Assembly (NCBI GenBank): GCA_937864225.1
Contig: CALMJK010000016.1
Location: forward strand, 34,030 to 98,029
Origin: an uncultured bacterium
GTDB taxonomy: Bacteria; Krumholzibacteriota; Krumholzibacteriia; LZORAL124-64-63
Reading direction: 5' to 3'
Length of the DNA: 64,000 nt
Numbering within the stretch: the stretch's first letter is position 1; every line of letters starts with the position of its first letter. Of this stretch, positions 61,465 through 64,000 are shown piece after piece. Under the pieces are notes generated by a model that worked only from the letters and a program-made list of their open reading frames with translations, was not told the origin of the DNA and ran no database searches. The position numbers were made by a program, and so were the translations under genes.

Positions 61465-64000
61465 TCCTGGTCGACGGCGGCGCCCTGATCTACCGCGCCT
61501 ACTACGCTTTCGCGCACCGTCCCCTCACGGCGCCGGATGGCGAGCAAACGTCCGTCGCCTTCGGCTTCGTCAACAGCGTCCTGCGCCTGATCGACGCCAG
61601 GCGCCCCACCCATCTGGCCGTCGTCTTCGATCGGCGCGAGCCGACCTTCCGGCATCGGCGGTACGAGGCCTACAAGGCCACCCGCAAGCCGATGCCTGAG
61701 GAGTTGGCGGCGCAGCTGCCGCGCCTGCGCGAGTTGCTGCAGGCTTGGGGCGTGGGCGTGTGCGAACTGGCGGGATGGGAAGCCGATGACGTGATCGCCA
61801 CGCTCGCGCGCCGTTCGGCCGGCGTGTGCGAGCGGGCTCTGCTCTACAGCGGCGACAAGGATTTCCTGCAGATCCTCGACGCGCGCACGAGTCTTCTGAA
61901 ACCGGGGCGCCGTGGCGACGACGTCACGGAAGTCACGGCGGACGCGGTGCGACGGGAGTTCGGCCTGGAGCCGGCGCGGCTGGTGGACGTCTTCGCGCTG
62001 TGGGGCGACGCCAGCGACAACATTCCCGGGGCGCCGGGCATCGGCGCGAAGACCGCGCGGCAATTGATCCGGAGCTTCGGCAGTCTCGAGGCGCTGTACG
62101 CCCGGCTGGACGAGCCCGAGTTGACGCCGCGGCTGCGCCGCATTCTGGAAGAGAATCGCGAGCAGGTGTGGCTTTCCCGCGAGCTCTTCCGCATCGACGT
62201 CGAGGCGCCGGTGCAAGTCGATTGGGAGGCGCTGCGCAGCTGCCTGCCGGACGGGGCGGCGGCGCGGGAGCTGATGGCGAAGCTCGGCTTGCGGCAATTG
62301 CTGGCCCTGACGGATCGCTTGGCGCGGGCCGGCATGGCGACGGCCGCGCGGCGGACGCCGGAAAGGCCGCGTCCGGCCGCGTCGCCCGATGAGGCCGCCG
62401 AGCCGAGGCCCCCCGTGGCGGCGGCCGGGCGCGAAGGCGAGCGCGAAGCGCAGTTATCGTTTGTTATAGTCACTAATGACAGTGACTTGCGAGCATATAT
62501 TCATTCTCTACCTGAAGGCGCCGCGGTGGCCGTGGCCACGGAGGACGACGGCGAGCGGCCGGACCGCGCCCGCCTGCTGGGATTGGCTCTGTGCGCCGTG
62601 GGAGGGCGCCCGGCCTACATCCCGGTGCTGGAGTCGGGCAACCCCCGGGCGCAGGCGCCCCCACAGACAGCGGGGCCGGGCACGCTCTTCGGTCCGGACG
62701 CGCCGCCGACCCCGGCGCGATGTCACCTCGCCTGGATCCAGCCTTGGCTGGCGCCCATGTTGCGAGACGCGTCGCGCGCGAAGCTGGGTCACGACCTCAA
62801 GCGCGACGCCTGGCTGTTGGCGCGGCACGGTTTGCCGCTGGATGGGCCGTTCTTCGACGTCATGGTGGCGGCGTACCTTCTGGATCCCGACCGCGCGCGG
62901 CGGGACCTGGTGGAACTGGCGCGAGACTACCTCGCGCCGCCGCGACCGCCGGCGGCGGCGGATGCCTCCAGCGGCGACAGGCGCGGCGACGCCCTGGCGG
63001 AGCCGTTGTCGCGGCGAGCGGGACAGACGGCCGCGGCCGCGGCCACGATCGCGCGACTCGCCGGCGAATTGGCAGGCGCGGTGGACGAGGCGGGGCTGTC
63101 GACACTGCTGCACGAAGTGGAATTGCCCCTCCTGAACGTGCTGTGGCGCATGGAGAGGCGCGGCATCCGACTCGACACCGCCTTCCTGGCGGGGTTGAAG
63201 GCGCAGTTCGCGCGCGAGATGGGCGAACTCGCGCAGCGGATCGAGGTCGCCGCGGGGGAGCCGTTCAACGTGCAGAGCCCGCAGCAGCTCTCCCGGATCC
63301 TTTTCGAGCGACTCGGGCTGAAGCCGCCGAAGAAGACGGCGACGGGTTTGAGCACGGACAGCGGCGTGCTGGGCGCCCTGGCCTCGCAGCACGCGCTGCC
63401 GGGGCTCGTGCTGGAGCATCGGCAGCTGGCCAAGCTGCAAAGCGCGTACGCCGAGGCGTTGCCGGAGCTGGTCAACCAGGAGACGCAGCTCATCCACACG
63501 TCCTTCAATCAGACGATCGCCGCGACGGGCCGGCTCTCCTCCTCGGACCCGAACCTGCAGAACATTCCGATCCGCACGGAGGCGGGGCGACTGATTCGCC
63601 GCGCCTTCGTGCCGCGCGAGGCGGGCCGGGTCTTCATCGCGGCGGACTATTCGCAGATCGAGCTGCGGCTGCTGGCGCATCTGTCGGGCGACGCGGCGCT
63701 GACGAAGGCCTTCCGCGAGGGGGGGGACGTCCACCGGCGGACGGCGGCCCTCATCGCCGGTGTGGCCGAGGAGCAGGTCACGTCGGACATGCGGCGGCGC
63801 GCGAAGGCGATCAACTTCGGCGTGATCTACGGCATGGGCGCGCGCGCCCTGGCTCGTCAGACCGGCGTCTCCGTGCGCGAGGCCACGGCCTTCATCGAGA
63901 ACTACTTCGCGACCTATCCCGGCGTGAAGGCCTGGTTGGAGGAGACGCGCGCGCGGGCGCGTCGCGAGGGCAAGGTCGAGACCATGCTGGGGCGGCGGCG
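61455..64000 (+). CDS. polA: DNA polymerase I (5'-3' exonuclease + 3'-5' exo-like + polymerase domains), 3'-truncated at window edge
   Basis: A manual translation gives a continuous frame from GTG 61455 to base 64000. The 5'-nuclease motifs are present (LILVDGGALIYRAYYAF…GWEADDVIATLA…GDKDFLQI…). Polymerase motif A DYSQIELRLLAHLS and motif B-region RRRAKAINFGVIYGMG are also present. The frame is absent from the ORF track because no stop occurs in the window. Confidence 0.9.
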   Translation, partial: MSLILVDGGALIYRAYYAFAHRPLTAPDGEQTSVAFGFVNSVLRLIDARRPTHLAVVFDRREPTFRHRRYEAYKATRKPMPEELAAQLPRLRELLQAWGVGVCELAGWEADDVIATLARRSAGVCERALLYSGDKDFLQILDARTSLLKPGRRGDDVTEVTADAVRREFGLEPARLVDVFALWGDASDNIPGAPGIGAKTARQLIRSFGSLEALYARLDEPELTPRLRRILEENREQVWLSRELFRIDVEAPVQVDWEALRSCLPDGAAARELMAKLGLRQLLALTDRLARAGMATAARRTPERPRPAASPDEAAEPRPPVAAAGREGEREAQLSFVIVTNDSDLRAYIHSLPEGAAVAVATEDDGERPDRARLLGLALCAVGGRPAYIPVLESGNPRAQAPPQTAGPGTLFGPDAPPTPARCHLAWIQPWLAPMLRDASRAKLGHDLKRDAWLLARHGLPLDGPFFDVMVAAYLLDPDRARRDLVELARDYLAPPRPPAAADASSGDRRGDALAEPLSRRAGQTAAAAATIARLAGELAGAVDEAGLSTLLHEVELPLLNVLWRMERRGIRLDTAFLAGLKAQFAREMGELAQRIEVAAGEPFNVQSPQQLSRILFERLGLKPPKKTATGLSTDSGVLGALASQHALPGLVLEHRQLAKLQSAYAEALPELVNQETQLIHTSFNQTIAATGRLSSSDPNLQNIPIRTEAGRLIRRAFVPREAGRVFIAADYSQIELRLLAHLSGDAALTKAFREGGDVHRRTAALIAGVAEEQVTSDMRRRAKAINFGVIYGMGARALARQTGVSVREATAFIENYFATYPGVKAWLEETRARARREGKVETMLGRR

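Follow-up and report, generated by a model that had tools for sequence, protein, structure and literature searches.

A Position-Conserved Cluster of Rare, A/T-Rich Codons at the 5'-Nuclease/Klenow Junction of polA, a Candidate Translational Pause

The window analyzed here, a 64,000-nt stretch of DNA from an uncultured bacterium, ends within polA, the gene for DNA polymerase I (Pol I). The coding sequence, on the + strand, opens with a GTG at position 61455, shares its first 10 nt with the end of nadD and continues past the edge of the window, which contains 848 of its 955 codons (61455-64000). An identical full-length protein of 955 aa is represented by P0001. Membership of the protein in the bacterial family-A Pol I group follows from the presence in one chain of 5'-nuclease, 3'-5' exonuclease-fold and polymerase domains (PF02739, 5_3_exonuc_N; PF01367, 5_3_exonuc; PF01612, DNA_pol_A_exo1; PF00476, DNA_pol_A), all of which scored above their cut-offs. 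The 5'-nuclease (FEN) domain occupies residues 1-291 (61455-62327, + strand), with PF02739 at residues 3-170 and PF01367 at residues 172-262; in the AlphaFold model its helices extend to residue 291 with pLDDT >90, the last of them spanning residues 280-291. It is followed by a Pro/Ala/Glu-rich linker of about residues 298-333 (62346-62450, + strand) that is predicted to be disordered (pLDDT <50 in the same model) and whose DNA is the most GC-rich of the gene (0.80-0.87 in 60-nt windows). Linkers in the clade described below are between 41 and 64 residues long.

Beyond the linker, the chain matches the Klenow and Bst structures. The ExoI motif (62529-62549, + strand) is degenerate, reading AVATEDD here compared to AVDTETD in relatives: Ala361 (codon 62535-62537) replaces the catalytic Asp that corresponds to E. 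coli D355, and the best match in the PDB was 1KLN, the D355A mutant of Klenow. The catalytic set of ExoI, ExoII and ExoIII (E. coli D355, E357, D424, Y497 and D501) is not intact in the window protein, which retains E357 and D424 but carries, in addition to the Ala at D355, Thr and Ala/Thr at Y497 and D501, respectively. Relatives keep DTETD and YAAEDAD, the ExoI columns are nearly invariant in alignment A1, and the exo1 Pfam score was 40 bits for the window protein compared to 63-85 bits for relatives.

Between the linker and the ExoI motif lies an island of 22 rare, A/T-rich codons (62451-62516, + strand; residues 333-354 of 955) encoding the peptide QLSFVIVTNDSDLRAYIHSLPE. Its first codon, cag, is at 62451-62453 and its last, gaa, ends at 62516. 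The original prediction had described this sequence, its translation and its reading frame as we found them, although its coordinates (62454-62517) were 3 nt off. It had likewise aligned the peptide with E. coli Pol I, correctly: the counterpart is NYVTILDEETLKAWIAKLEK, residues 6-27 of the Klenow chain (E. coli-like row L064). In the Klenow-like large fragment, these codons specify the opening short strand and the first helix (residues 342-351); the island begins exactly at the end of the disordered linker and 42 residues past the 5'-nuclease domain. The Pfam 3'-5' exonuclease domain starts 3-4 residues after the start of the island in 6 of 6 clade proteins tested. The placement of the island inside the conserved 3'-5' exonuclease region holds for the N-terminal edge of that region, not for its depth, and some catalytic residues of the domain have been lost in this protein.

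The island has 36% GC, where roughly one-third had been reported, and the flanking 60-nt windows have 78-87% GC, where about 70% had been reported; its edges are sharp. Only three 50-nt windows in the entire 64 kb fall below 35% GC, and the 0.1th percentile is 38%. The island has a GC3 of 0.27 (6 of 22 codons ending in G or C), while the polA gene as a whole has 71% GC and a GC3 of 0.89. An analytic expectation derived from the peptide of the island itself and the codon usage of the gene itself called for 19.6 +/- 1.4 G/C-ending codons compared to the 6 observed (z = -9.8). The codon choice is far from random and is not dictated by the protein, and these synonymous-only tests rule out amino-acid composition as the sole cause of the island.

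We compared the gene with those of seven core relatives, which share 60-68% protein identity and represent five independent lineages, and with an extended clade of nine polA members that includes L089 and L090. Source labels among the relatives include Krumholzibacteriia and Latescibacteria, and the clade consists of GC-rich uncultured FCB-type bacteria, in whose genes ~90% of codons otherwise end in G or C. In all seven core relatives, the 22-codon window aligned with the island was the gene-wide minimum of GC and GC3, or lay no more than 5 codons from it (z -3.5 to -6.5). Clade-mean GC3 at the island was ~0.40 compared to 0.90 +/- 0.08, with individual values of 0.27-0.50, and all 25 of the lowest windows mapped there. 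When peptide and own codon usage were controlled for, the synonymous signal was z = -5 to -14. A synonymous scan of 89 polA genes gave the same picture, the nine lowest values belonging to the nine extended-clade members (z -4 to -9), with the gene-wide synonymous minimum no more than 13 codons from the island in 9 of 9. Among the nine are L089 (z -9.4) and L090 (z -4.2), even though the peptides of both are GC-rich at this position rather than AT-biased. No 50-nt window of the 5.9-kb clade loci other than the island dropped below 46% GC, and every intergenic region in them is richer in GC than the island.

Individual codons were conserved as well. A rare codon was present in at least 5 of the 7 genes in 6 of ~960 alignment columns, and all 6 of these are in the island. 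Elsewhere in clade polA, the relative frequencies of the codons concerned are 0.00-0.10, with usage estimated from polA together with the genes of the window. At the nucleotide level, the island is best conserved along its 3' border, 'cta cct gaa ggc' (LPEG; 62508-62519, + strand), directly past which GC rises again. At this border TTG was found in 5 of 7 genes, CCT for Pro in 7 of 7 and GAA in 6 of 6, compared to shares of 7% (TTG), 5% (CCT) and 19% (GAA) in the rest of these genes; TTR was found in 7 of 7 within the island. The AT shift in the core clade extends to codon positions 1 and 2 (GC1/GC2 of 0.53/0.33 compared to 0.75/0.49 gene-wide).

Four-fold degenerate sites outside the island were only ~50% identical between lineages and are thus saturated, which means that retention of the island reflects selection rather than shared ancestry. 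Taken together, these findings demonstrate that the island is fixed in position and kept by purifying selection on synonymous sites across the clade, which holds its codons in rare A/T-ending and TTR-type forms; it is an old, vertically inherited feature. The original prediction was prepared to be abandoned if the AT-rich codons were not conserved in related genomes; they are conserved in all clade relatives examined, and it survives in this respect.

The matches listed in a metagenome scan were all distant polA genes and provided the background for comparison; a scan of genome contigs for polA relatives returned as its only match a 27%-identical Halomonas polA. A general property of polA in GC-rich bacteria was rejected as an explanation, since the 15 unrelated genes of at least 65% GC among the matches listed had GC1/2/3 of 0.78/0.44/0.85 at the island columns. 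There is nonetheless a weak general tendency of polA at this position: in unrelated polA genes among the matches listed, the gene-wide minimum fell within +/-20 codons in 10 of 80 compared to 3.5 expected (P = 0.003). No other conserved island was seen in the ~25 orthologous genes that could be compared, and the island is specific to polA among them.

The selection described above acts, we infer, on the rate of translation. We hold with moderate confidence that the island is a conserved rare-codon cluster that acts as a translational pause. Rare codons of the island would be decoded slowly, so that the ribosome would linger on codons 333-354. During such a pause the exit tunnel would be occupied by 30-40 residues of the disordered linker, with the entire 5'-nuclease domain (residues 1-291) having just emerged. 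The nuclease domain would thereby gain time to fold ahead of the exonuclease/polymerase part. The residues of the island in the core clade have in addition drifted towards, or stayed at, those with AT-rich codons. Selected pauses have been described 20-60 codons downstream of folding units (10.1101/121871), and across the clade the island lies 41-64 residues past the nuclease domain, within or just past this offset. Codon rarity was also better kept than low RNA structure: L090 has an average minimum free energy over the 66 nt, and just 4 of the 7 core genes have their single weakest window at the island. The 64-kb window contains no tRNA gene.

Several observations temper this interpretation. 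In a genome of 70% GC, 'rare' and 'A/T-ending' cannot be separated, and selection for AU-richness would look the same. The AT shift at codon positions 1 and 2 is not required by a pure pausing model. Use of CCT, and never CCA, for Pro in 7 of 7 genes hints at a sequence-specific constraint rather than a merely 'slow' one, albeit with only ~five independent lineages. Lastly, if pauses after linkers were generally useful, more cases would be predicted, and the lack of one in the ~25 other genes compared counts against the model.

Conserved rare-codon clusters (CRCCs) are a documented and widespread class (Chaney et al. 2017, PMC5438181). Like CRCCs, the island comprises a run of ~17-22 rare synonymous codons at the same aligned position across species, is explained neither by amino-acid composition nor by overall GC, and is far from the gene termini: we found rare codons in a window, the same aligned position, persistence under the peptide and GC control and, with codons 333-354 of 955, a location outside the first and last 50 codons. 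It likewise resembles the slow-codon loci of Jacobs & Shakhnovich 2017 (10.1101/121871) in lying 42 residues (41-64 in the clade) past a complete folding unit. Unlike a typical CRCC, however, it displays a far stronger signal (synonymous z to about -9; GC3 of 0.27-0.50 compared to 0.9), and in the core clade the choice of amino acids is AT-shifted as well. Whole-domain boundaries explain few of the conserved clusters in both surveys (PMC5438181, 10.1101/121871), where they are poor predictors, whereas the polA island starts exactly at the edge between linker and domain; these survey results count against the pausing interpretation. Gene 5' ends can likewise be AT-rich and weakly structured, with a rare-codon 'ramp' (PMC2833160, PMC12725619). 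The island shares with these ramps a local synonymous depletion of G and C together with reduced mRNA folding over a few tens of nt; in contrast to them, it is 333 codons inside the gene and is associated with neither a conserved start codon nor a Shine-Dalgarno sequence, and the true gene starts in the clade loci lack a comparable dip. In the literature searched, we found no earlier description of such a cluster in polA or in this phylum.

Most support for selection on rare-codon clusters comes from genome-wide statistics, and few clean single cases exist. The polA island is an unusually clear one, being the strongest synonymous outlier of its gene in nine lineages with otherwise saturated synonymous sites. 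Its location at the junction of the 5'-nuclease and Klenow parts, a linker of approximately exit-tunnel length and the availability of simple assays for each domain make the long-debated connection of pausing with co-translational folding testable by synonymous recoding.

As an alternative to a pause, the island may function in the mRNA as an AU-rich, weakly structured stretch that serves as an RNase E/Y-type cleavage or entry site or is recognized by an RNA-binding regulator, an sRNA or ribosomal protein S1, and that sets the half-life of polA mRNA or uncouples expression of the two halves of the operon transcript. We consider this possible but rather unlikely. It would account for the AT shift at all three codon positions in the core clade, and for conservation of nucleotides beyond that of 'any rare codon' (CCT as above; TTGCCTGAAGG in 5 of 7). 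By folding energy the island also belongs to the weakest 0.2-10% of 66-nt windows in each of the 7 core members, and in 4 of them it includes or overlaps the weakest of all; it is left unpaired in the consensus fold and, as noted above, is the only low-GC window of each locus. However, L090 keeps the synonymous signal and yet folds at gene-average stability, structure is lost only modestly in L089, whose synonymous signal is the strongest, and no cleavage or binding motif was identified in the island. An Rfam search returned only matches to eukaryotic families, far below gathering scores, and RNAalifold, which gave a covariation term of +0.33, recovered neither covariation nor a conserved structure. 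A combined model, in which a pause site coincides with a nucleic-acid element (an AU-rich site for mRNA processing or a regulator, or a DNA site) that sets Pol I dosage or uncouples the nuclease and polymerase halves, is in our estimation a minority possibility of similar weight. Were such an element to exist, selection on composition or sequence would explain the constrained codon positions 1 and 2, the invariant CCT and TTGCCTGAAGG.

We also considered a site at the level of DNA, namely one that a regulator or nucleoid protein would bind, with a palindrome as operator, or an easily melted segment. The inverted repeat GTCAC-N8-GTGAC that had been reported in the island was confirmed at 62469-62486 and is part of a longer one with 7-bp arms, AGTCACT-N6-AGTGACT (62468-62487). 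This extended pattern occurs once in the window compared to 0.03 expected from shuffles, although it was chosen after being seen. L004, L087 and L088 carry other short palindromes at roughly the same place, and the strings 'aaTGACA' and 'TTGCCTGAAGG' recur. However, sequence, arm length and spacing vary from one palindrome to the next, and none is found in L003, L085 or L086; the recurring strings follow conserved residues (N-D, L-P-E-G), and conservation is in codon phase, mostly at third positions. A search for sigma-70 promoters (-35/-10, 16-18 nt spacing) gave 0 sites on both strands of 61400-64000, even though the genome has canonical ones, such as TTGACC-N17-TATAAT at 14131-14159 of the window, and no terminator was found on either strand around the island. 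These results make a DNA-level site improbable. The repeat is private to this genome and probably incidental, and a conserved hairpin or palindrome as the core element was rejected, since the sequence is not kept in relatives and yields no consensus hairpin. The palindrome was absent from the viral contigs searched, and a mobile-element or phage origin for it was dismissed on this basis. The suggestion of intragenic regulatory DNA is thus unsupported in its narrow sense of a promoter, operator or structured RNA. By inspection, an ATGACA...TATATT pair, 14 nt apart, recurs in 5 of 7 genes.

An internal promoter or translation start, giving rise to a separate Klenow-like protein that lacks the 5'-nuclease, would be attractive given that the island sits exactly at the classical junction of small and large fragments, that its AT-richness and weak structure resemble a translation-initiation region, and that most members have an in-frame TTG or ATG at island column 13, column 20 or both. 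In no column, however, is a start codon common to all members: column 13 is TTA in two of them, and column 20 is CTA in the window. Shine-Dalgarno pairing at the candidates was weak (+0.7 to -5.9 kcal/mol) compared to the true polA starts checked, seven of which were at about -10 to -11 kcal/mol, with others at -8.0, -8.0 and -5.3. AT-richness is not a feature of the genuine gene starts in these loci, and there is no promoter-like site. We therefore rejected a Shine-Dalgarno-dependent internal start and regard any internal start as very unlikely. An overlapping gene in the +1 frame, starting from the conserved aATGac (ATG/GTG), was also rejected, with ORF lengths of 219, 102, 102, 5, 23, 99 and 51 aa. 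Likewise, off-frame 'ambush' stops do not appear to be the selected feature, since the +1 frame is not consistently closed, and are a by-product of AT-richness; L085-L087 have only three or four +2-frame stops in the whole gene, three of them within the island.

The codon usage of the island had originally been called foreign, with mosaic recombination as a possible cause. A patch acquired by recombination or gene conversion from a low-GC donor would fit the composition, which is sharply unlike that of the flanks, and the observation that the island of the window is the most extreme in the clade, with a peptide that is more diverged (identical at 9-11 of 22 positions) than the rest of the protein (0.67). 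However, all clade members are AT-rich at these aligned codons although their synonymous sites are saturated. Amelioration would by now have erased a patch acquired by their ancestor, and it is implausible that five lineages each received one at this spot independently. Comparison of this segment with the rest of polA, which had been proposed as a check, gave concordant similarity rankings (Spearman rho 0.56, P = 3e-11): the nearest matches of the island peptide are the lineages nearest over the rest of the protein, with no sign of a recombination patch and no match to a viral contig. A recombination patch is, on these comparisons, close to refuted. Similar to xenogeneic AT-rich patches, the island contrasts sharply with its surroundings, but it differs from them in being only 66 nt long, in frame, orthologous, conserved in position and of a phylogeny concordant with that of the gene.

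An assembly error or chimeric contig, to which only the abrupt change in composition could point, is already refuted. The island leaves the frame intact and encodes a peptide with homology to Pol I, and 13 contigs (ENA, NCBI, Logan) yielded exactly this 955-aa protein. L002, the one contig compared at the nucleotide level, matches the window without a difference over 2,544 nt. The island peptide is also unchanged in a strain variant that differs by one substitution, and the feature recurs in relatives that come from other samples. Sharp AT-rich islands in GC-rich genes need not, then, signify horizontal transfer or misassembly.

A second AT-rich island in the window, at 8524-8625 in a Wzy_C gene (noted originally at 8538), had been paired with that in polA as a sign of a systematic phenomenon. 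The two look similar and behave differently, illustrating that orthologues are to be checked before a mosaic is called. The Wzy_C orthologues are of normal composition (GC 0.59-0.61, GC3 0.91-0.95), which rules out a common cause; together with the ~25 other genes, this argues against a systematic phenomenon. The two islands are thus unrelated.

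The A/T-rich segment of polA flagged in the original prediction is real, with codons and translation as described, while its span, 62451-62516, differed by 3 nt from that first reported. These 22 codons (polA codons 333-354, running from cag tta tcg to cta cct gaa) encode QLSFVIVTNDSDLRAYIHSLPE within a gene that starts with GTG at 61455 and leaves the window after 848 codons. The island is 36% GC, with 6 of 22 codons ending in G or C; polA is 71% GC with a third-position G/C share (GC3) of 0.89, the window overall is 70.1% GC, and 60-nt windows adjoining the island reach 78-87% GC. 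Based on the island's own peptide and the codon usage of the gene, 19.6 +/- 1.4 G/C-ending codons were expected (z = -9.8). The predicted inverted repeat is also present, in the fuller form AGTCACT-N6-AGTGACT (62468-62487) rather than just GTCAC-N8-GTGAC. Fifty-nucleotide windows below 35% GC were found at three places in 64 kb: the island, positions 8524-8625, and intergenic DNA ahead of lexA.

An assembly error, which would have undermined the original prediction, was ruled out. Gene calls on 13 contigs (ENA, NCBI and Logan) gave the identical 955-aa protein (P0001), a strain variant of Pol I differing at one residue carries the same island peptide, and relatives possess the same feature. 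Of the 13 contigs, the one compared as DNA, a 233-kb ENA contig (L002), agreed with the window at each of 2,544 bases; whether it is the window's own source, as it may be, is moot because relatives carry the island too.

No close relative was present among GTDB species representatives. The nearest proteins (60-68% identity) came from metagenome-assembled genomes (MAGs); homologues carry source labels such as Krumholzibacteriia, Latescibacteria and Gemmatimonadales. We compared the DNA of seven polA loci, referred to as the core clade (L002, which is the window's genome, L003, L004, L085, L086, L087 and L088); since L003/L004 and L085/L086 are close pairs, these represent five independent lineages. 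Beyond the island, identity between lineages at four-fold synonymous sites was only ~50%, i.e., these sites are saturated. In every core member the island-aligned 22-codon window was the gene-wide minimum of GC and GC3, or lay no more than 5 codons away (z = -3.5 to -5.4 for GC and -3.5 to -6.5 for GC3). Clade-mean GC3 over 10 aligned columns fell to ~0.40 at the island compared to 0.90 +/- 0.08, the 25 lowest alignment windows all mapped to residues 327-350, and within each 5.9-kb locus (five genes plus intergenic regions) the island alone contained 50-nt windows below 46% GC.

The island peptides differ considerably among members (QLSFVIVTNDSDLRAYIHSLPE, RRDYRIINDSNALDLFLASLPE, RPNHHILYDDNELQRYLEALPE). 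Rare codons are nonetheless retained at individual alignment columns, in line with the conservation of AT-rich codons in related genomes that the original prediction required. The island Pro is CCT in all seven genes, a codon used for 5% of Pro elsewhere in these genes, and one Leu is TTG or TTA in all seven (7% and 0.3% elsewhere). Another Leu is TTG in five of seven, CTT/ATT recurs in six of seven and GAA in six of six. Among ~960 alignment columns, six bear a rare codon in at least five of the seven genes, and all six lie within the island. We conclude that the synonymous sites of the island are under selection.

The dip was absent at the island columns of 15 unrelated polA genes of at least 65% GC, in which GC at the three codon positions was 0.78/0.44/0.85, compared to 0.53/0.33/0.43 for the clade. 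We also scored 89 polA genes by a synonymous-only statistic, in which the peptide and codon usage of each gene set its expectation. The nine lowest values (z = -9.4 to -4.2) belonged to the core seven together with L089 (a MAG labelled Latescibacteria, 59% identity) and L090 (labelled Krumholzibacteriia, 56%), and in all nine the gene-wide minimum fell within 13 codons of the island; the polA of L091 (57% GC) gave no synonymous signal. L089 and L090 show little or no dip in raw GC, and their island peptides are without AT bias. Therefore, conservation centres on synonymous codon choice, and the AT-biased amino acids seen in the core clade come on top of it. Outside the clade the tendency was only weak: the strongest synonymous A/T cluster lay within 20 codons on either side of the junction in 10 of 80 genes (L001, L007, L015, L035, L037, L045, L050, L052, L054 and L073), where 3.5 were expected (P = 0.003). 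The island may be widespread in a weak form at the 5'-nuclease/Klenow boundary of bacterial polA.

Foreign codon usage through mosaic recombination, as originally proposed, is contradicted by the vertical pattern of the island: its peptide best matched the homologues P0003, P0004 and P0002 (9-11 of 22 residues), the lineages closest over the remaining protein, and similarity rankings for the two agreed (rho = 0.56, P = 3e-11). Ancestral import was rejected because amelioration at saturated synonymous sites would be expected long ago. Nor did intragenic regulatory DNA, in the form of a promoter or structured RNA, find support. The island region held no sigma-70-like promoter or terminator on either strand, Rfam returned no credible match, and RNAalifold detected no conserved hairpin: the island stayed unpaired and the covariation term was unfavourable. 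The palindrome was either lacking or different in kind in relatives, and that of the window was absent from viral contigs. Out-of-frame ORFs from a conserved aATGac (ATG/GTG) were of unconserved length (219, 102, 102, 5, 23, 99 and 51 aa). No in-frame start codon within the island was conserved across members, and Shine-Dalgarno pairing at candidate internal starts was weak (+0.7 to -5.9 kcal/mol, compared to -8 to -11 for most true polA starts).

The island occupies a defined position in the protein. According to Pfam, the 5'-nuclease SAM-fold domain ends near residue 262 and the 3'-5' exonuclease domain begins 3-4 residues past the island start in six of six clade proteins tested. The AlphaFold model (mean pLDDT 84.8) places the last nuclease helix at 280-291, a disordered stretch at 298-333 (pLDDT ~30), and the first ordered large-fragment elements at 337-338 (strand), 342-351 (helix) and 358-364 (ExoI strand). 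Thus, the island starts exactly at the end of the linker; it aligns to Klenow chain residues 6-27, just beyond the classical proteolytic junction. If rare codons slow decoding of codons 333-354, the ribosome would linger at a point where the linker fills its tunnel (30-40 residues) and the whole nuclease domain has just left it, and this pause would benefit folding. The data show that the island exists, is conserved, is under selection at its synonymous sites and has this geometry, whereas slow decoding and the benefit to folding are the steps that we infer. The island lies 42 residues past the nuclease domain (41-64 across the clade), matching the 20-60 codons by which conserved slow-codon loci are reported to follow folding units (10.1101/121871). 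Conserved rare-codon clusters are a described class (PMC5438181), of which whole-domain boundaries account for few in both surveys (PMC5438181, 10.1101/121871).

Selection for RNA accessibility was also considered. In core members the island ranks with the 66-nt windows that fold most weakly but contains or overlaps the single weakest in only four of seven, and the L090 island folds normally with its codon signal kept. Because codon rarity is conserved more consistently than lack of RNA structure, we rank the translational reading above accessibility. Function at the nucleic-acid level (RNA processing, a site for a regulator, or a site in DNA) fares best among the alternatives and is in total rather unlikely. 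A constraint on composition or sequence is hinted at by two observations, namely that codon positions 1 and 2 are AT-shifted too and that CCT is used exclusively; rare and A/T-ending codons are inseparable in a 70%-GC genome. Among ~25 genes compared, polA was the sole one with such a cluster. The island displays every testable property of a conserved rare-codon cluster, and we file it as an unusually extreme member of that known class rather than as categorically new; it was undescribed for polA or these phyla in the literature searched.

The order bamD(YfiO/TPR)-nadD-polA-coaE-prfB is kept clade-wide (window 60053-64000; L002-L004, L085-L091). Stop/start junctions overlap, by 10 nt between the nadD-like gene and polA (61455-61464) and by 8 nt between polA and coaE in L002, an arrangement that suggests one translationally coupled operon. 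In the very GC-rich polA genes of L085, L086 and L087, the +2 frame is open for ~600 codons; it has three or four stops gene-wide, and three of them fall within the island (island-aligned codons 354, 359 and 362 in L087). These stops are a by-product of AT-richness, and make the island nearly the sole site where a -1/+2-shifted ribosome would terminate in these three genes.

The ExoI motif (62529-62549) reads AVATEDD in the window versus AVDTETD in relatives, with Ala361 (62535-62537) at the position of E. coli D355; the best PDB match to the region was 1KLN, the engineered D355A Klenow mutant. The ExoIII region (~63015-63050) reads GQTAAAAATIA versus GRYAAEDADVT in E. coli, with loss of Y497 and D501. 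Both motifs are intact in relatives, where Pfam exo1 scores are 63-85 bits, compared to 40 bits in the window. Judged from these motifs, the window's Pol I probably lacks proofreading, as Taq and Bst Pol I do. Two further Pro/Ala-rich, low-confidence loops (pLDDT <50; residues 397-417 and 496-511, ~62643-62705 and 62940-62987) lie in this degenerate domain as insertions relative to aligned E. coli Klenow.

The most AT-rich island in the window (8524-8625, 26% GC) covers residues ~147-172 of a Wzy_C/O-antigen-ligase gene (8098..9597). In the syntenic orthologues L092 and L093 (the latter shares its sample with L003), GC is 0.59-0.61 and GC3 is 0.91-0.95 over the aligned segment; this normal composition indicates that the second island is private to the window's genome. 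Its peptide is orthologous (15 of 27 residues identical to homologues, about the whole-protein level) and unusually rich in F/Y/M/I/N/K (0.48 versus a median of 0.22), and in the strain variant P0121 one Ile of the window (ATA) is replaced by Met. It amounts to an AT shift specific to this lineage and to a single transmembrane helix. No further conserved islands occurred in ~20 kb of synteny or in polA neighbours. The proposal that two islands reflect a systematic phenomenon is therefore not borne out, since one is private and the other clade-wide.

The third AT-rich outlier (24710-24788, 32% GC) is intergenic, directly upstream of lexA (24819..25415; Pfam LexA_DNA_bind and Peptidase_S24; GGGAGG Shine-Dalgarno sequence). 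Its direct repeat TTTTCGC-N5-TTTTCGC could be a LexA operator or part of a promoter. A canonical sigma-70 promoter-like TTGACC-N17-TATAAT (14131-14159) lies upstream of a 1,653-aa gene (14263..19224), whose L093 orthologue bears Peptidase_C25 and FG-GAP domains, indicating that standard -35/-10 promoters are used in the window's lineage.
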